Below, piece by piece: positions 23,202-49,738 of a DNA stretch of 64,000 bases. Source of the DNA: a virus. Taxonomy: Duplodnaviria; Caudoviricetes. Location: positions 1 through 64,000 of IMG/VR virus record IMGVR_UViG_3300028048_000106; one strand, written 5' to 3'. The translations under genes were made by a program, and so were the position numbers. The notes beneath the pieces were generated by a model. The model saw nothing but the letters and a program-made list of their open reading frames with translations. It was not told where the DNA came from and searched no databases. Every line of letters begins with the position of its first letter. The first letter of the stretch is position 1.

Positions 23202-25238
23202 ATGAGTGAGTCAATATTCAACAATGCAGTAGACTTAAGTGACATACCACAAGACCAATGGCGCAAAAACTACATTGGTCCTGGATATCGCAATGTCTTC
23301 TACACAACCAACCATGACAGAGAAGGGCGCATTGTCCTCTTTGGATTTGACTTAGCTGGAAACCCTAAGACATTCATCTGCCCATGGAAGTCACAGTTCA
23401 AGTTCCGCGTGAAGTATGACACTCCTGAGAAAGACATCTTTGGCAACTATGTTGAGACACGCTTCTTCAAGTCAAGCTATGAGCGGAAGAAGAGGCTTGA
23501 AGACATTGGACAGAGCCTTTGGATTGTTGAGTGCTTGAAGCCAGAGCAAGAGTTCTTGCAAGAGATGTTCTACAAGAACTGCCTAGATGAGTCATTCAAC
23601 ACACAGCCAATGCGCATGCAGTTCATTGACATTGAGACAGAAGTCTCAGATGTCTTCATGCGCCCATCTGATGCTGGCAACCGCATCAACATGATAACTA
23701 TCTATGACACACTCACTGAGAAGTTCTACACATGGTCACTTGAGCACGCTGACATCAAGTTCCATGATGAGTATGATGAGAATGGGCATCTTGTGTGGGA
23801 GAACCCACTGAAAGACCTTCCAAAAGACAAGTTTGAGTTCTTTGAGTTCAACAACAATGAAGAGCGTCTTCTTGAAAGCTTCTTAGACTGGATTGAAGGC
23901 AACTACCCTGACATCAGCTATGGATGGAACATAAAGGCATTCGACTGGCCATACATTGTGAGGCGCATTGAGAATGTCTTAGGGAAGAGCCATGCGGCAC
24001 GTCTGTCTCCTGTTGGCAAGTACAGGATAAAAGAAGTGAACCATGATGCACCAAAGGCAGATGTTGGTGCAGAGATAGAAGTAGACATATCTGGCTTGTT
24101 CATTGCAGATGGCCTAGTGCTGTATAGAGACAAGTTCTTGATTGCTCCTGCTCTTGATGGAGGGTACAACCTCTCAAATGTTGGTGAGCATGAAGGCCTT
24201 GGCAAGAAGATCCAATATAAAGGGACTCTCAAAGACTTGTATGTCAAAGACTACCAGAAGTTCTATGAGTACAATGTGCGAGATGTCCATTTGACTGTAG
24301 AGATTGAGAAGAAGTGCAAGCTTACAAATCTTGCAAGGAAAGTTGCAGGACGTGGACTCTGCCCTTATGGCACAATCTACTCATCAATTGCATATCTCAC
24401 TGGCTCATTGATTGCATTCTCACGAGACAAGATGGATGCAATATTCCAGTCTTACTTGAATCGGCCAAATGTCAAAGAAGAGTATGAAGGCGCGTTCGTG
24501 TTCCCTCCTGTGCAAGGTGTGTATAGAGGAGGGATTGCCTGTGTAGATTTTAATAGTTTATATCCATCAAGCATTCGAGCATCAAATATGTCTATTGAGA
24601 CATATGTGGGCAAGATATCACGGATGAATGTCTTGTTTGACAGTGCAAGCCAACGTAGAGCTTTCAACATGGAAGAGTACATTGACATCAATGATGAGAC
24701 AATTGATGACCTTTGGTTCTATCCAGCAAATGGTGGAAAAAGAAAGCAGGTGAAAAGAGAAGACATTGTCAAGCTTGTCAAGACAAAGTGCATCTACACA
24801 AGGAACAACACCCTGTTCTTGAAGCACAGTGTCAAGCAGGGTGTCATATCTGCATGGTGCAAGCACTTCTACAACTTACGCAAGGCAACTAAGAAGAAAG
24901 GCCAAGCACTTGACCTTGAGATATACAAAGGCAGCATCCCTAAAGACCAGATAGCAAAGGCAAAGCTTGATGTTGAGAACCTTGATGCTGACCAGCACTC
25001 TTTGAAGATCATGCTCAACTCAGTGTATGGCATGTTTGGCACAAACCACTCACCTATATACAGTGCACACATTGCACAGAGCATCACTCGCACTGGAAAG
25101 TTCTGTAACATAAGTGCAAGCAAGTTCATCAAGAAGAGGTTCAAAGATTTGTTTGGAATTGATGACAGCTATGCTTCAGTTGCAAGTGGAGACACTGACA
25201 GCATCACTAAAGATACTATTTTATATATAAGATCTTAA
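23202..25238 (+). CDS. family B DNA polymerase, N-terminal part, ending in 12-aa split intein N-fragment
   Basis: Exo I FIDIETE, Exo II WNIKAFD, Exo III YNVRD, motif A VDFNSLYPS, motif B KIMLNSVYG; ends GDTD-SITKDTILYIRS-TAA. Confidence 0.95.
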   Translation: MSESIFNNAVDLSDIPQDQWRKNYIGPGYRNVFYTTNHDREGRIVLFGFDLAGNPKTFICPWKSQFKFRVKYDTPEKDIFGNYVETRFFKSSYERKKRLEDIGQSLWIVECLKPEQEFLQEMFYKNCLDESFNTQPMRMQFIDIETEVSDVFMRPSDAGNRINMITIYDTLTEKFYTWSLEHADIKFHDEYDENGHLVWENPLKDLPKDKFEFFEFNNNEERLLESFLDWIEGNYPDISYGWNIKAFDWPYIVRRIENVLGKSHAARLSPVGKYRIKEVNHDAPKADVGAEIEVDISGLFIADGLVLYRDKFLIAPALDGGYNLSNVGEHEGLGKKIQYKGTLKDLYVKDYQKFYEYNVRDVHLTVEIEKKCKLTNLARKVAGRGLCPYGTIYSSIAYLTGSLIAFSRDKMDAIFQSYLNRPNVKEEYEGAFVFPPVQGVYRGGIACVDFNSLYPSSIRASNMSIETYVGKISRMNVLFDSASQRRAFNMEEYIDINDETIDDLWFYPANGGKRKQVKREDIVKLVKTKCIYTRNNTLFLKHSVKQGVISAWCKHFYNLRKATKKKGQALDLEIYKGSIPKDQIAKAKLDVENLDADQHSLKIMLNSVYGMFGTNHSPIYSAHIAQSITRTGKFCNISASKFIKKRFKDLFGIDDSYASVASGDTDSITKDTILYIRS

Positions 25239-25280
25239 ATTTATGTCTTTATCCATCTTCTGTTAGAGGTAAATATAAAT

Positions 25281-27083
25281 ATGGGACAAGTATAGACAAA
25301 TATAGACTTATATTCAAAAATCAACCTTAATTGGACTCAACAAGATGAAGAGTTCTTGAAAATTGCTCTTGATGCGCATGATAAAAGTAGAATTGGATGG
25401 GTCAAATGGCTAGTAAAACATTATCCAGAAGTTGTTGATTGGTTATGGCATCGTCATCCATTATTGACAGACTCATATAACATATCAACACATCTATATT
25501 GGCTTGAGCATAAGTTTGTTGAATTTCCTAGATGCAAAGTGTGTGGAAAACCTATGTCAAAAGACATAGATTCTTTTGATGGAGGGTATTTTAGAGCATG
25601 CAATCCACTATGCGCAGCTAAAGACCCAAAAAGAAAAAAGAAGTATCAAAACACTTGTCTTGATAGATATGGATCTTCTAACTATTTAGCATCAAAAGAT
25701 GGAAAAGCAAAACGTGATCTTTGGCTTGCTTCTCAAGGAGTCACTAATGCATTTCAACTTGAATCTGTGAAAGAGAAAGCAAAGCAGTCTCGAAAAGACC
25801 ATTTTGGATATGAATTCACAATGCAAAGCCCTGAAAAAAGAAAACTCGCAAGTGACAACTACAAGAAGAAGACAGGATATGTGCATCAATTCTATGACCC
25901 AAATGTCCAAAAGAAAATCAATCAAACAAAGAAAAACACGATTGCTGCTGGAATAGATCCACGAAAGAAGTTCAAGCAAAATTGGAGAATACGACGTTAT
26001 AATAGCATTGCATCTCTTTCAACTGAAGTAGTTCCACTGTTCTCTCTTGAGCATTTTATGCAATTTGACAGAATTGGTCAATACCATGTTCTATTTGATT
26101 GGCACTGCAACAAATGTGGAAAAGACTTTAAAGCACATCTTGACCAAAATTTGATTCAACGTAGTAGATTGCCAGCTAGATGTTTGGTTTGCCATCCAAT
26201 ATCAAATGGAACATCTAGATATGAATATGAAATTACTGATTTTTTGATGAAATCTTGTGGAATAGCAGATGTAAAGATGCATGATAGAGATGTCTTGAGC
26301 CCTTATGAGATAGACATATCAGTTCCAAGCAAGAAGATTGGCTTTGAGTTTGATGGTCTATTTTTCCATTCAGAGACAAATGGAGGAAAAGACAAATCTT
26401 ACCATGTATTCAAGACTGACATGGCTAGAAAGAATGGATATCAACTATTCCACATATTTGAAGATGAATGGATAAACCATAGGCAATTGGTTGAGTCTCG
26501 TATAAGAAGTATATGCGGCAAGCCTAAAGAAAGACTTTTTGCTAGAAAATGCTGTGTTAGAGAGATTAATGACGCATGGCAAGTAAAAGATTTTTTGAAT
26601 TGCAACCATCTGCAAGGATGGTGTGCATCTAAAGTGAACTATGGCTTATTCTATGAAGGCCATCTAGTTGCAATGATGACATTTGGAAAGCCAAGATATA
26701 GCAAGTCATTTGATTGGGAACTACTTAGATATTGTTCAAAGATAGATGTGCAAGTCTTAGGAGGAGCTGGAAAGCTTCTTAGCGCTTTTGAGAAGGACTA
26801 TCATCCAAAAATGCTTTTGTCATATGCTGATAGACGATGGTCATTTGGAAAGATGTATGAGTCTCTTGGATTCTCACTAGACCATACTAGTAGTCCAAAT
26901 TATTGGTATCTTAAGACTGGCATATGCAAGAGGTTTTCACGTATTGACTTCCAAAAGCACAAGTTAAAAGACATTCTTCAAAATTTTGATTCATCACTGA
27001 CTGAAGTTGAGAATATGCGAGCAAATGGCTATGATCGAATATTTGACTGTGGAAACTTTGTATATGTAAAGCCATATGTTTAA
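25281..27083 (+). CDS. free-standing homing endonuclease (Zn fingers, PD-(D/E)XK/Vsr-like domain, Hef-like C-terminus); one TAG at codon 5
   Basis: CKVCG, CNKCG..CLVC, YEIDI..IGFEFDGLFFH, IFEDEW, SYADRRW, RIFDCG; lies between the polymerase halves. Confidence 0.85.
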
Positions 27084-27118
27084 AATAAGATGTCTATCTA
27101 AAAAAGTATGATTTCTAT

Positions 27119-28429
27119 ATGAATCAACAGATAAACATAGAGAGTTTATATGATAGTCTAGTAGATAAGTTTGATATAGAAAATAGAGGCTCATATGAAG
27201 TCATCTATCCAAGTGGCATTGAGATAAAAGTCTTTGGAAACAAATATGTCAAATTAGTTGCAGTCTCAAGGCATAAGACTTCTAAGCATATTGTTGAGGT
27301 GTCAGTTGTGTCTTCAAAAGGAATTGACAAAGTCAAAGTGACAACTGATCATATTTGCATGGTGTACAATGATGACCATTTCTTTGAGAATGTTGATGCA
27401 AAGAACTTGAAAGTTGGCAACTATGTGTCTGTATATGACAGTGAAAAAGACATTGAATTAGTTGGGACAATATCTAGTCTAGTTGATTTGGGGCAAATTG
27501 ATGAGTGGGTGTATGACTGTGAAGTAAATGACAATATGCACGCATTCTATGCAAATGATATTCTTGTGCACAACTCACAGTTTGTGAACATAGAGTGTGT
27601 GACAGATGACTTCAAGAAGAAGTATAGCCTTGGAGGCAACTTGGCAAAGTGGGATGATGAGAGCAAGCTCAAGCTTTGGAAGTGGGTAGACAACTTTGTT
27701 GAGACAGAAGTCAATCCATTCGTGCAGAATGACTTGATTGGCAAGACATACTGCACTGAGCATCCAGAAGTGCTGCGCTACTCACTTGAGTATGTTGGCG
27801 CTGTTGGCATCTATGAGAGGAAGAAGCACTATGCTGTCCACAAGATACTGTCAGAAGGGCCAGAGATTGTTGACAAAGTCAAGTTCTCAGGCATTGAGCT
27901 CAAGAAGGCATCTACTCCAGCTACTGTGAAAGACATCCTTCGTGACATATACTTAGGTGTCCTCAAAGAAGACTGGACTGAGCACCAGTTCATTGAGTAT
28001 GTCAATGCAGCATATGAGAAGTTCAAGACGCTCACGATCTCAGACATTGCAATGTGGAAAGGGTACAACACGGCCCGAGAAGCTGTTGGGTTCTTAGACA
28101 TGGAGACTGGTGCAACAGGCATATCAAAGGCATGCACATACTACAACCAAATGGTAGACCACTTGAAGATTGGCAAGAAGTATGACACGATCTTGCTTGG
28201 CCAAAAAGTGCGTTTTGCATATGTCATCCCTTCAAATGAATATGGCATTGAGTGCATTGCATTCCATGATGGGCAGTGGCCAATTGAGTTTGACAGCATA
28301 TTCAAAGTTGACTATGATGTGATGTTTGACAAGATGGTCTTGTCACCATTGAAAGGGTTCTTAGAGGCGACAAAGTTCAAGAAAGTTGACCCTAGGAAGC
28401 AAGTTGTGTTTGACATATTCGACTTATGA
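27119..28429 (+). CDS. split intein C-fragment (152 aa) fused to PolB C-terminal part
   Basis: INIESLYD, block B VTTDH, block F WVYDCEV, block G ILVHN/S; extein SQFVN..KKHYA..FSGIELKK. Confidence 0.95.
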   Translation: MNQQINIESLYDSLVDKFDIENRGSYEVIYPSGIEIKVFGNKYVKLVAVSRHKTSKHIVEVSVVSSKGIDKVKVTTDHICMVYNDDHFFENVDAKNLKVGNYVSVYDSEKDIELVGTISSLVDLGQIDEWVYDCEVNDNMHAFYANDILVHNSQFVNIECVTDDFKKKYSLGGNLAKWDDESKLKLWKWVDNFVETEVNPFVQNDLIGKTYCTEHPEVLRYSLEYVGAVGIYERKKHYAVHKILSEGPEIVDKVKFSGIELKKASTPATVKDILRDIYLGVLKEDWTEHQFIEYVNAAYEKFKTLTISDIAMWKGYNTAREAVGFLDMETGATGISKACTYYNQMVDHLKIGKKYDTILLGQKVRFAYVIPSNEYGIECIAFHDGQWPIEFDSIFKVDYDVMFDKMVLSPLKGFLEATKFKKVDPRKQVVFDIFDL

Positions 28430-34487: not shown

Positions 34488-36317
34488 ATGGCACTGAATT
34501 GGAATCCTTTTAGAAGACGGACATCTGACTAGACAAGCTAGAACATCTAGAACAACCCTAACTACTAGACATTTGCCTAGGTGAACTAGGACATTCAAGC
34601 AATTGTCAATGCAAAGTCAGTTGTGTCAACTGCAGCAAAAGACTAGAACAGAAGATTTGCAAACCCTTCTTGGCAGACATTCTTTGATGGTGAGATACTT
34701 GCACTTCCTCTAGCAACAAACAAGTCTGAGCGGATTGACTAGTATAGACGCATCTCAAAGTACAACATCTGTGATTGGTGCTTTGATGAGATTGCAGATG
34801 ACTTCATACATGAAGATGAGAATGGTGACATAGTGAAGCTGTCTGTCCCTGACAGACTGTCAACAATGCAGAAAGACATTCTGCAGAATGAGTTCAACAA
34901 GTTCATGAACTTGTTCAAGATAAAAGAAGACGGCTACAACTTGATAAAGCGCTTCTTGACTGAAGGAGAGCTTGCGTGGGAGAATGTCATCAGTCCAGCC
35001 CACCCAGAGATGGGCATAATTGGAGTGAAGTTCTTGCCGGCTGAGTACTATGAGACATTGATTGACACATCAACAGCTCGACCTGTTGGCATTGTCTTTG
35101 ATGTTGGGTCATTTGCTGATGAGACACGGCAGATGTACAGGAACTCTTTTCAAGGAGCAGCATCTATATTCAATGCGGTGTATCCAACACAGTACAAGTT
35201 CACTTTCTCAAAAGACACATGCATACCACTGCTGTACAGCCAGATAACATACATAAACTCAGGTGAGTACTCACATGACTTCTTGATAACTTATCCATTG
35301 ATTGAGAAGGCAAAGCAAGCATACTACAAGCTAGCATTGCTTGAAGATGCTGCTGTGACTCTACGTGTGACTCGTGCTCCTGAAAGACTGCTGTTCAATG
35401 TGTCTACTGGAAGACTTGACTAGAATAGAGCAGATGAGTATGTCAGACGGTTTGCAAACAGCTTGCACTCAAAGAAAGTTGCTGCAAATGGTGGGCAAGA
35501 CATTGTCAGCACATATTCACCAATCACAATGTTGAAGTCATATATCTTTGGCAAGTCATCTGACTCAGAAGGGACAACTGTAGAGTCTGTTGGCTCATCA
35601 GCTGACTATGACTAGCTTGCTGACATTGAGTACTTCTTGAGAGCATTCTTGAAGATGTTCAAGGTGCCATTCTCTCGCTACAAGACACCAGAGAACACAA
35701 TTGAGAAGAATGATGCTATACCATATGAAGAGTACTCATTCAGCCGTATGATAATGCGCTTCTAGAGAAGATTTGCAGAAGGCTTCAAACGCGGATTCAT
35801 AACACACTTGAAGCTTCGTGGACTTTGGGACAAGAAAGACTATGGACTAAAAGACTCTGACCTGCAAGTCAACTTCACTGCACCTGTCCTCTATGACTTG
35901 TATGAGAAGTAGAAGTTGACAGAGGCAAAGATGGCAATCTACAAAGCTTTCACTGACAATGATGAGATGTCTAAGTCACTGTGCATGAAGAAGTACTTAG
36001 GCTGGTCAGATGAAGAGATAAAAGAGAACTACATGTCATTGATACTTGACAAGCAGTGGACTGCTGTTGCTGACATGATGAGCGAGCGCATATCAGATGA
36101 GAACCCACCCGTTGACATAGAGTCTCCTATGAAGTTGAAGAATGACGTTGACAAGCTAGAGAAGAGCATAGGAGGCTAGGACAATGCCAATAGCGAAGAG
36201 CCATCTAGTGGAGAAGCAGAAGGTGGAGAAGAGGCAGAGTCAAGTGAAGAGCCATCTAGTGAAGAGAAAGAAGAGCCAGCAAAAGAGGCTGAGACTCCAA
36301 CGTTTGGCCTTGGCTAA
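34488..36317 (+). CDS. portal protein (T4 gp20-like), TAG-recoded
   Basis: YRRIS..FDEIAD, LLEDAAVTLRVTRAPERLLFNVSTG, DIEYF..FKVPFSR; continuous frame to TAA 36317. Confidence 0.93.
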
Positions 36318-47830: not shown

Positions 47831-49738
47831 ATGGAGAAAGAAGAACAACTAGCAACAATAAAAAAACCTGGCGAGATTGAGAAGATCTCTGATGAAGAGT
47901 TCTAGCGTAGAGTCATTGAAATTGCAAAATGCAAGCGTGACATCGTTTACTTTGCAGAGAAATACTACCGTGTAATAAGCCTTGACAAAGGCTTGCACAT
48001 AATAAAGCTCTATGATGTGCAGAAAGAATTCTTGAGATTCTTAGTCGACAACAACAAAGTCATATGTGTAAGTGGAAGACAATAGGGTAAGTCAACCATC
48101 TACTGCATCTATGCACTTTGGCTTGCTTGCTTTTCACCAGAGAAGAAGATAATGATTCTTGCAAACAAAGCAGCAACTGCACTTGAACTTCTTAGTCGAA
48201 TTGAGACAGGCTATGAGTATCTTCCGCATTGGATAAAGCCTGCTTGCCTTGTGTTCAATAAAGGTGAGATAACATTCTCTAACATGTCATCTATACGTGC
48301 ATTTGCAAGCTCAAGTGATGCTGCTCGTGGATTCTCATGCAATGTTGTGATCCTCGACGAGTTTGCATTCTTGAACAAGAATGTTGCAGACAAGCTCTTC
48401 ACTTCCATGTATCCCGTCATCTCGTCATCCCGGAATGGCAAGTTCATAATTGTCTCTACACCAAATGGGACAGACAACTTGTACTATGACATCTGGTGTC
48501 AAGCAAACTCAAAAGAAGTTGGAAAGAATCTTGAAGGCTGGAAGCCTTTTGAGATGTATTGGCACCAAGTTCCAGGCCATGATGAAGCATGGAAAGAGAA
48601 GCAGATTGCTGCAATTGGAGCACAGCGGTTTGCGCAAGAATTTGACAACTAGTTCTTGGCAAAGAGTGACAACAAGAAGCTCATTCCTGATGATGTCCTC
48701 TAGAAGTTCCGCATAAAGCTCTCTGAGTACAAGGCGCAAGGGTTGAAGCCAAAGAAGTAGAAGATTGTCTCTTAGGCCTAGGATGAGCTCTATGAGTTTG
48801 AGATGTGGCATGAGTTCAAGCCTAATAGGACATATCTTGCTTCAGCTGACATCTCTGAAGGCATCGGCAGTGACAGTTCAGTGCTGTACATATGGGATGT
48901 GACAGACTTGTCAAACATAGTGATGTGCGCAAAGTTCTCATCAAATGTCACATCTCTTGTGCAGTTTGCATACATTGCAAATAGAATATTGGCATTGTAC
49001 AACAATCCTTGGCTAGCGGCTGAACGGAATGGTGTCTCTGCAGGAATGCTTGACTCTCTTAGGATAACATATGGCTACTAGAAGATAATCATTGACAACA
49101 AGAAAAGAGAGCCTGGAATATACTCTCACGTCTAGGTGAAGAGCAGAGCATGCTTGTGGGCACGAGACATGATGACAACTAGCTGCTTTGGCTGGACAAT
49201 CTATGACAAAGACCTCATTGATGAACTGTCTATATTCATAAAGAAAGACACAAAAGGCATGCAGAATGTCTACCACGCAATGCCTGGACCAAACTCTCAT
49301 GATGACCATGTCATGGCATTCATATGGGGAGCCTATGCACTGCACAATGACAGAGTGCAAGACCACTTCATAGTAGTTGACACAGTCACAACTTAGATAG
49401 GGCTAGTGTATGCACACTACTTGCAGCCACTAGAAGAATACAATGCAAATGACATATCAAAATTGACAAGTGACCCACTGTACAAAGAGTTCTTGCAGTA
49501 CAAAGAAGAGGCAGTGAAGCTTGGCCAAGGGCTGCTAGAGGCAATGCAAAGAGAAGATGATGCTGATATCTTCAAGTATGAGAAGCCAGACACATACTTT
49601 GGTGATGAAGATGGAAGTGGCTCTTGGAACAGCACTCCACTGAACTGGAACATGAAAAAAGACTTCTAGTAGAGTGGTAGAAGCTAGGTGCAGTTGAATG
49701 GCCGAAGCAGTAGTCCGCCACCATTCTTTGTGTTTTAA
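47831..49738 (+). CDS. terminase large subunit (T4 gp17-like), TAG-recoded
   Basis: CKRDIVYFAEKY, Walker A GRQ(TAG)GKST, ILDEFAF, STPNG, FAQEF, ADISEG, AERN, HDDHVMA; GTAAATA at 47796. Confidence 0.95.

Follow-up and report, generated by a model that had tools for sequence, protein, structure and literature searches.

The virus record IMGVR_UViG_3300028048_000106 (Caudoviricetes) contains a DNA polymerase gene (polB) that is divided into two open reading frames (ORFs) at its catalytic motif, with intein sequence on both sides of the break and an endonuclease gene between the halves. Positions 1-64,000 of this record were analyzed and are here called the window; all coordinates refer to it, unless a relative is named, and the parts of the polymerase locus lie on its + strand. 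The first ORF, PolB-N (23202..25238), encodes 678 amino acids (aa) and ends with VASGDTD followed by SITKDTILYIRS and a TAA stop codon. Its first 666 aa (23202..25199) form the N-extein, which reaches to the catalytic GDTD and comprises the exonuclease and palm domains. The remaining 12 codons (25200-25235) and the TAA (25236-25238) occupy 25200..25238 and constitute the intein N-piece SITKDTILYIRS, which was read directly from the sequence and starts with Ser1 encoded by AGC at 25200-25202. PolB-N matches Pfam DNA_pol_B (8.6e-27) and, in its exonuclease domain, DNA_pol_B_exo1 (5.8e-14), and the N-extein matches the PHROG 262 DNA polymerase (6e-102).

The second ORF (27119..28429, 436 aa) starts with MNQQINIESLYD and has an ATG of its own, with an in-frame TAA (27086) 30 nucleotides (nt) upstream. 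It encodes the intein C-piece of 152 aa (27119..27574) fused to the C-terminal part of the polymerase. The motifs SRHK, VTTDH, VYDCEV and LVHN are found in this ORF, and they place the NX motif at R51-H52, N3 at T75..H78, C2 at D133 and C1 at H151-N152 of the C-piece. The terminal Asn codon ends at 27574 and the polymerase sequence is picked up with SQFVN at 27575, where Ser+1 is encoded by TCA. The C-extein (27575..28429, 284 aa and the stop) matches the PHROG 262 and 1918 DNA polymerases and shares 88-92% identity with the last 284 aa of the intein-free polymerases L003 and L082. The inserted element thus spans exactly 25200-27574, and the 92-kb record has no other PolB and no other intein. 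A previous sequence-only reading of the window had proposed this layout, in which PolB-N ends with GDTD and a 12-aa piece and a later ORF resumes with SQFVN; the layout was confirmed base for base and the proposed ends of the element are exact. The same reading had both nucleophiles as Ser and the intein motifs TTDH, VYDCEV and VHN in the downstream half, and these are indeed encoded at AGC 25200, at TCA 27575 and within 27119..28429, respectively.

Between the two halves lies a free-standing homing endonuclease gene of approximately 600 codons (25281..27083). Either ATG 25281, in which case TAG at 25293-25295 is read as Gln, or TTG 25356 could serve as its start codon. The ORF shares the frame of PolB-N, is open from 25296 and has its stop at 27083. 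The presence of an endonuclease at this position, also put forward earlier, is borne out by a match to PHROG 3339 (~1e-118), and with the ATG start the gene is flanked by spacers of 42 and 35 nt, close to the approximately 40 nt first estimated.

The C-piece identifies the intein as a relative of a characterized one. Searched against the PDB with phmmer, it matches the PolB16 intein entries 8CPN (E 5.3e-60) and 8CPO (E 1.3e-57), with approximately 75% identity over the aligned part as read off the PDB alignment, and it also passes the cut-off of TIGR01443 (intein_Cterm). The N-half of the polymerase is approximately 84% identical to that of the PolB16 polymerase, and the N-piece is in register with the synthetic PolB16 N-piece SVHGKTHVFIRSIKN. 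A query of 25 residues across the N-junction, too little for such a search, found no match among PDB sequences; the construct used for the crystal has the S1A mutation. Among isolated phages in GenBank no close relative was found, every match being below 30% identity.

PolB16 OarG, described by Pasch et al. (2023, Chem Sci; PMC10189870; PDB 8CPN/8CPO), is a split intein of a PolB-type polymerase found in a sheep gut metagenome. It interrupts the N-extein SGDTD, has an N-piece of 15 aa (SVHGKTHVFIRSIKN) and a C-piece of 168 aa beginning with MQEAKIDIKSLYDS, and uses Ser1 and Ser+1 with the C-extein SQFCN (PMC10189870). Its separately made fragments splice in trans, also when the 15-residue N-peptide is synthetic, and splicing is impaired by the mutations S1A, H68A, T106A, D164N, H182Q and N183Q (PMC10189870). 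H68 belongs to the new NX motif, in which it is preceded by Arg or Lys and which is specific to Ser1 inteins (PMC10189870). The counterparts of all these residues are present in the window: S1, and in C-piece numbering R51-H52, T75, D133, H151, N152 and S+1. The class 1 motifs are likewise there, namely N1 (SITKDTILYI), N3 (VTTDH), C2 (VYDCEV) and C1 (VHN), together with NX (SRHK), and they support a naturally and atypically split, cysteine-independent class 1 intein. The two inteins share the host protein, the insertion point (SGDTD/S...HN/SQF.N), Ser1 and Ser+1, the split after beta-strand 2, the Arg-His of NX and two non-catalytic Cys residues in N3 and C2. They differ in the length of the N-piece, which is 15 aa in PolB16 and 12 aa here, the tail IKN being absent (...IRSIKN vs. 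...IRS), and in that of the C-piece (168 vs. 152 aa), in which a 15-residue stretch of the PolB16 insertion T84-D101, partly disordered in the crystal, is missing from the window. In addition, position +4 is Cys in PolB16 and Val in the window.

Taken as a whole, the locus very probably represents a PolB16-family mini-intein in a fractured polB, with a free-standing homing endonuclease gene between the halves and trans-splicing at the protein level. By sequence comparison, it is a shorter natural variant of the characterized PolB16 and not a new type of split. Of the original proposal, the naturally split intein with a 12-aa N-piece thus stands and its novelty does not: allele and family are those of PolB16, and 12 aa turned out to be the modal length of the family.

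For a survey of the N-pieces of the family, the C-terminal 199 residues of PolB-N served as the query, and 120 clusters were listed. Split PolB-N proteins ending 11-28 residues past GDTD account for 85 of these clusters. Among the clusters listed, the most frequent N-piece length is 12 aa (n = 21), followed by 13 (17), 16 (14), 14 (13), 11 (6) and 15 aa (3). The 74 unique N-pieces follow the pattern S-x-x-(G/S)-(S/D)-T-x-(I/L/V)-(Y/R/H)-(I/V)-(K/R) in positions 1-11, the first residue being Ser in 72 and Thr in two of them, and past position 12 both length and sequence are free. Because of this patterning and the freedom beyond position 12, the N-piece seems to have a functional core of 11-12 residues. 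The window N-piece conforms with S1, T6, aliphatic residues at positions 8 and 10, and K/R at 11, and is a typical family form and not an outlier. One of the relatives, P0128, has an N-piece identical to that of PolB16 and a polymerase half approximately 84% identical to that of the window.

A similar picture is obtained for the C-pieces. The search with the C-piece-PolB-C protein gave 178 proteins at E <1e-10, of which 120 were listed and 32 were aligned. Nearly all of the listed homologs are 435-460 aa long. All 32 aligned relatives, with identities reaching down to 51%, begin at the same split point, with a Met start 2-5 residues ahead of the conserved core. Residues H52, T75, D133, H151, N152 and S153 are invariant among them, and R51 is conserved in at least 90%. 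The HN/S junction is found in all 116 parsable C-pieces among the matches listed, and the lengths of these pieces group at 152-157 and 166-168 aa. When proteins were clustered at 50%, only about 15 clusters matched the C-piece at E <1e-10, most of them from protein residue 1-10, and the weaker matches were ordinary contiguous inteins in other hosts. In protein P0008 the N-terminal 14 residues are the same as those of the PolB16 C-piece (MQEAKIDIKSLYDS), its polymerase half being approximately 79% identical to that of the window; the source proteins of PolB16 are thus among the relatives found, as P0128 and P0008.

Intein-free and contiguous alleles exist alongside the split ones. In 34 of the 120 PolB-N clusters listed, the polymerase reads through the insertion point as GDTDSQF..., and some of these are 95-99% identical to the window. 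Intein-free P0121, for example, which like L082 reads GDTDSQFVN, has a length of 950 aa, exactly the sum of the two exteins (666 + 284), and shares 99% identity with the window in the final 199 residues of PolB-N. At the DNA level, the insertion point was located by alignment with L082, an intein-free allele: it falls exactly between GAY (Asp) and TCN (Ser), the uninterrupted target site reading ...GGNGAYACNGAY/TCNCARTTY... A contiguous mini-intein of 172 residues at GDTD/S was present in a single listed cluster, P0230 (1130 aa), in which a linker of approximately 10 residues at the split position joins the first 12 residues to the part aligned with the C-piece. This contiguous form, which could be either ancestral or re-fused, provides a comparator for splicing in cis.

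What lies between the halves varies from relative to relative. L004 has a single homologous endonuclease gene, and L097 has a homologous endonuclease gene and two small ORFs. In L083 (L083:4047-5987) the region is occupied by a different nuclease, with the motif E.D...EYDG..H, and by transposase-like remnants. The closest relative, L161 (86%), contains the endonuclease gene and a further 1.4 kb with a 127-codon ORF. A second DUF7487 endonuclease-like gene, a DEAD/ResIII helicase and a further endonuclease are found in L162:1-7311. In L162, L001 and L086 no PolB-N was found within 6 kb upstream of C-piece-PolB-C, and the polymerase halves seem to have become unlinked in these relatives, as in cyanobacterial DnaE. 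As the intervening DNA varies in this way, the halves have to be regarded as independent genes, and only a join at the protein level is common to all of them. A small ORF with a putative helix-turn-helix (MK..KVLEKL..TR.TL..YVKSGKIRV) is common to L083:4047-5987 and L097:3611-4217.

The endonuclease of the window matches the PHROG 3339 "homing endonuclease" (7e-118) and PHROG 559 (4e-98). Its N-terminal part matches Pfam DUF7487 only, and neither the NCBIfam search nor a single-sequence search of the PDB returned a match for it. When a profile of three homologs was used, I-Bth0305I (PDB 3R3P) was the joint-top PDB match over the catalytic region, at a weak E of 0.036, and the region matched contains the motifs E.D...FE.DG..H...FE.EW. 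The protein is likely to be Vsr-like (EDxHD, I-Bth0305I-type). Members of this family first became known from "fractured genes" (Dassa et al., 2009; PMC2677866), and Vsr-like homing endonucleases are also dealt with by Taylor et al. (2011; PMC3239194). Residues ~400-600 (26470-27080) form a strongly conserved domain with the motifs ARKC, NHLQG, MTFGK, YADRRWS, FQKH.LKD, TEVENM and IFDCGN. For these C-terminal ~200 residues no Pfam or NCBIfam name was found, and PHROG 29804, of unknown function, is the sole family match; the domain may serve as a DNA-recognition module. Homology to the endonucleases of L004 and L097 reaches upstream of TTG 25356, and the promoter-like heptamer GTAAATA lies at 25269..25275, 6 nt 5' of ATG 25281, as it also precedes the endonuclease ATG in L161. 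For these reasons ATG 25281 is probably the start codon, which would require that TAG at codon 5 is read as sense. It is the single TAG of the gene, none occurring later, and both PolB halves are TAG-free; translation of the nuclease may consequently depend on TAG read-through.

The following sequence of events is proposed. The mobile element, consisting of the class 1 mini-intein and the Vsr-like endonuclease gene, would sit between the Asp and Ser codons of GDTD/S. Since the endonuclease gene interrupts the intein in the loop that follows beta-strand 2, the intein would be made as two polypeptides: PolB-N carrying the 12-residue N-piece, and the 152-residue C-piece fused to PolB-C. On association of the two, the 12-mer would dock in the horseshoe fold and provide its missing strands 1-2. 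Splicing would then proceed through oxyester intermediates: first an N-O acyl shift at Ser1, then transesterification to Ser+1, and finally cyclization of Asn and an O-N shift. The His of NX, the Thr of N3 and the Asp of C2 would assist, as would the His-Asn at the end of the intein, and a 950-residue polymerase with a restored GDTDS active site would result. The endonuclease, in turn, would cut intein-free polB alleles of co-infecting relatives and thereby spread the element, and the empty alleles with 95-99% identity found alongside split ones fit an ongoing homing cycle. The anatomy of the locus, the population pattern, the conservation and the homology to an active intein are direct observations; splicing by this pair and activity of its endonuclease are inferred from sequence.

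It is conceivable that the halves no longer splice and that the intein pieces merely act as a non-covalent dimerization handle, or that the polymerase works as two subunits. A fractured PolB without an intein, the split gp43, is known in T4-like phages (Dassa et al., 2009; PMC2677866), PolB16 is slow and inefficient in vitro, and association alone might bring GDTD and S together, though the split is inside the catalytic motif. However, S1, the NX His, the N3 Thr, the C2 Asp, HN and S+1 are invariant down to ~51% identity, which would not be expected without selection for the chemistry, and the homolog PolB16 does splice, so that this explanation is considered improbable. Even less credible is a self-splicing intron or another RNA-level element that contains the endonuclease gene and whose removal would restore a contiguous, cis-splicing mini-intein. 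Vsr-like endonucleases occur also in group I introns (PMC2677866; PMC3239194), and P0230 shows that a contiguous version exists in nature. Nevertheless, a cmscan of 24900-27700 against Rfam with E up to 10 gave no intron family, and non-coding DNA is confined to the two short spacers. Furthermore, relatives do not conserve the intervening DNA, which may include unrelated genes and be longer than 6 kb, the C-piece ORF has its Met just before the core in every aligned relative, and PolB16 fragments splice when made separately. A group I intron with a homing endonuclease was rejected, as no intron RNA core was found in 24900-27700 and the spacers are only 42 and 35 nt, in line with the earlier judgment that such an intron would not fit. 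That the record is a partial (34%) metagenomic assembly could suggest a decaying polymerase gene broken by a selfish insertion, or a contig that is defective or mis-assembled. However, none of the three ORFs is disrupted, many independent assemblies and samples show the same architecture, and the exteins are 88-99% identical to intact polymerases, which leaves very little room for a pseudogene or an artefact.

Several points nevertheless weigh against trans-splicing of a mobile intein as described above. Splicing of PolB16 itself is slow, and C-cleavage reaches up to 25% (PMC13014065). The window N-piece is without the last three residues of that of PolB16, and no truncation data were found. 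The record represents ~34% of the genome according to CheckV, and a second, intact polymerase may lie elsewhere. As to the endonuclease, its start codon is uncertain (ATG 25281 or TTG 25356), and its assignment as Vsr-like is based on the weak profile match and on motif resemblance. Fractured polB with a splicing PolB16-family intein remains the preferred reading.

The split is not an artefact of the genetic code, since the stops that define it, at 25236 and 27086, are both TAA. This is of relevance as the phage reads TAG as Gln in its structural genes. In the standard code there are few long ORFs in the region of ~34.5-50.6 kb, which resolves into tiling + strand ORFs when read with TAG = Gln. 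In such translations the portal protein (34488-36317, 609 aa) matches PHROG 213 (1e-73) and the large terminase (47831-49738, 635 aa) matches terminase families (4e-50), each as a single stretch in spite of 13 in-frame TAGs. Stop-to-stop ORF counts under alternative codes were uninformative, and the assignment rests on the tiling ORFs and on these two matches. In the polymerase of some relatives TAG is also found: L084:679-714 has S-TAG-F where others have SQF, with TAG at +2, and C-piece-PolB-C of L162 (L162:6001-7311) contains nine TAGs, the database translation using TAG = Q. Avoidance of TAG in polB is therefore lineage-specific. No tRNA gene, and hence no suppressor tRNA gene, was found in the window or in the 92-kb record. 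At ~34% completeness, 92 kb correspond to a genome of approximately 270 kb, and relatives are found on contigs of up to 277-455 kb, which points to a TAG-recoded jumbo phage as the source.

The heptamer GTAAATA preceding the endonuclease gene occurs 18 times in the window when 4.2 occurrences are expected (approximately fourfold over-representation), and none of 100 shuffles reached 18. The sites, among them 25269, 33138, 38097, 42428 and 47796, are often located a few to 40 nt 5' of gene starts, including those of the endonuclease, PARP and terminase genes, and the motif may be a phage promoter element. A scan of 24800-27400 for sigma-70 promoters and terminators gave results at chance level. 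At the endonuclease ATG there is an overlapping match to the T4 late-promoter consensus TATAAATA; a T4-type late promoter was rejected, because TATAAATA is not enriched in the window (2 found vs. 1.1 expected).

Among known systems, the fractured genes of Dassa et al. (2009; PMC2677866) resemble the locus in their short spacers and in the promoter-like element just before the endonuclease start. The inteins described there (gp41-1, NrdJ-1, IMPDH-1 and others) are, however, split canonically, with N-pieces of ~90-100 aa and Cys, whereas the split in the window is near the N-terminus and both nucleophiles are Ser. Canonical split inteins of the DnaE and gp41-1 type have an N-piece of ~100 aa and a C-piece of ~35-50 aa, and the 12 + 152 aa of the window do not belong to that type. 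AceL-TerL, VidaL and PolB16, which had been named as comparators with somewhat longer N-fragments, do have N-pieces of 25, 16 and 15 aa, respectively (PMC13014065). VidaL, AceL-TerL and M86 DnaB are similar in pairing a very short N-piece with a long C-piece, and VidaL is even split at the same structural position, after beta-strand 2 (PMC13014065). All three differ in being Cys-dependent, in their host genes and in their sequence families, and M86 DnaB, of which an 11-aa N-piece works (PMC13014065), was split artificially. The Aes123 PolB1/CL intein of an Aeromonas phage (PDB 9HTH) is, like that of the window, a cysteine-less split intein of a phage family B polymerase, and the C-piece is weakly related to it (E 1.8e-5). 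Aes123 PolB1 is, however, naturally split at the canonical site, and the short 26-aa N-piece of the CL intein was engineered.

As of March 2026, the N-pieces of natural atypically split inteins were given as 15-37 aa, PolB16 being the sole natural cysteine-less one, with a "record-short" N-piece of 15 aa (PMC13014065). By this comparison, the 12-mer of the window is three residues under the published natural record, yet it is typical of its family in metagenomes. PolB16 is of limited use, as it is slow and prone to C-cleavage, and better cysteine-less inteins with N-pieces of ~15 aa or fewer are wanted by the field (PMC13014065). That the N-pieces of 11-12 residues in this intein and in dozens of its relatives are the shortest natural intein N-fragments, and that the compact 164-residue variant without the PolB16 insertion may splice better than PolB16 and supply the missing cysteine-less tool with a short, readily synthesized N-piece, is a tentative suggestion that we regard as rather doubtful. 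The family nevertheless offers a natural library of cysteine-less inteins with an 11-12-residue core, and the compact variant of the window is one candidate for protein engineering. The understanding of intein function is unchanged by these results, which are useful to specialists rather than surprising. For the phages themselves, they provide a well-resolved view of the life cycle of a fractured gene, in which intein-free, contiguous-intein and split alleles coexist in close jumbo phages and the halves are drifting apart.

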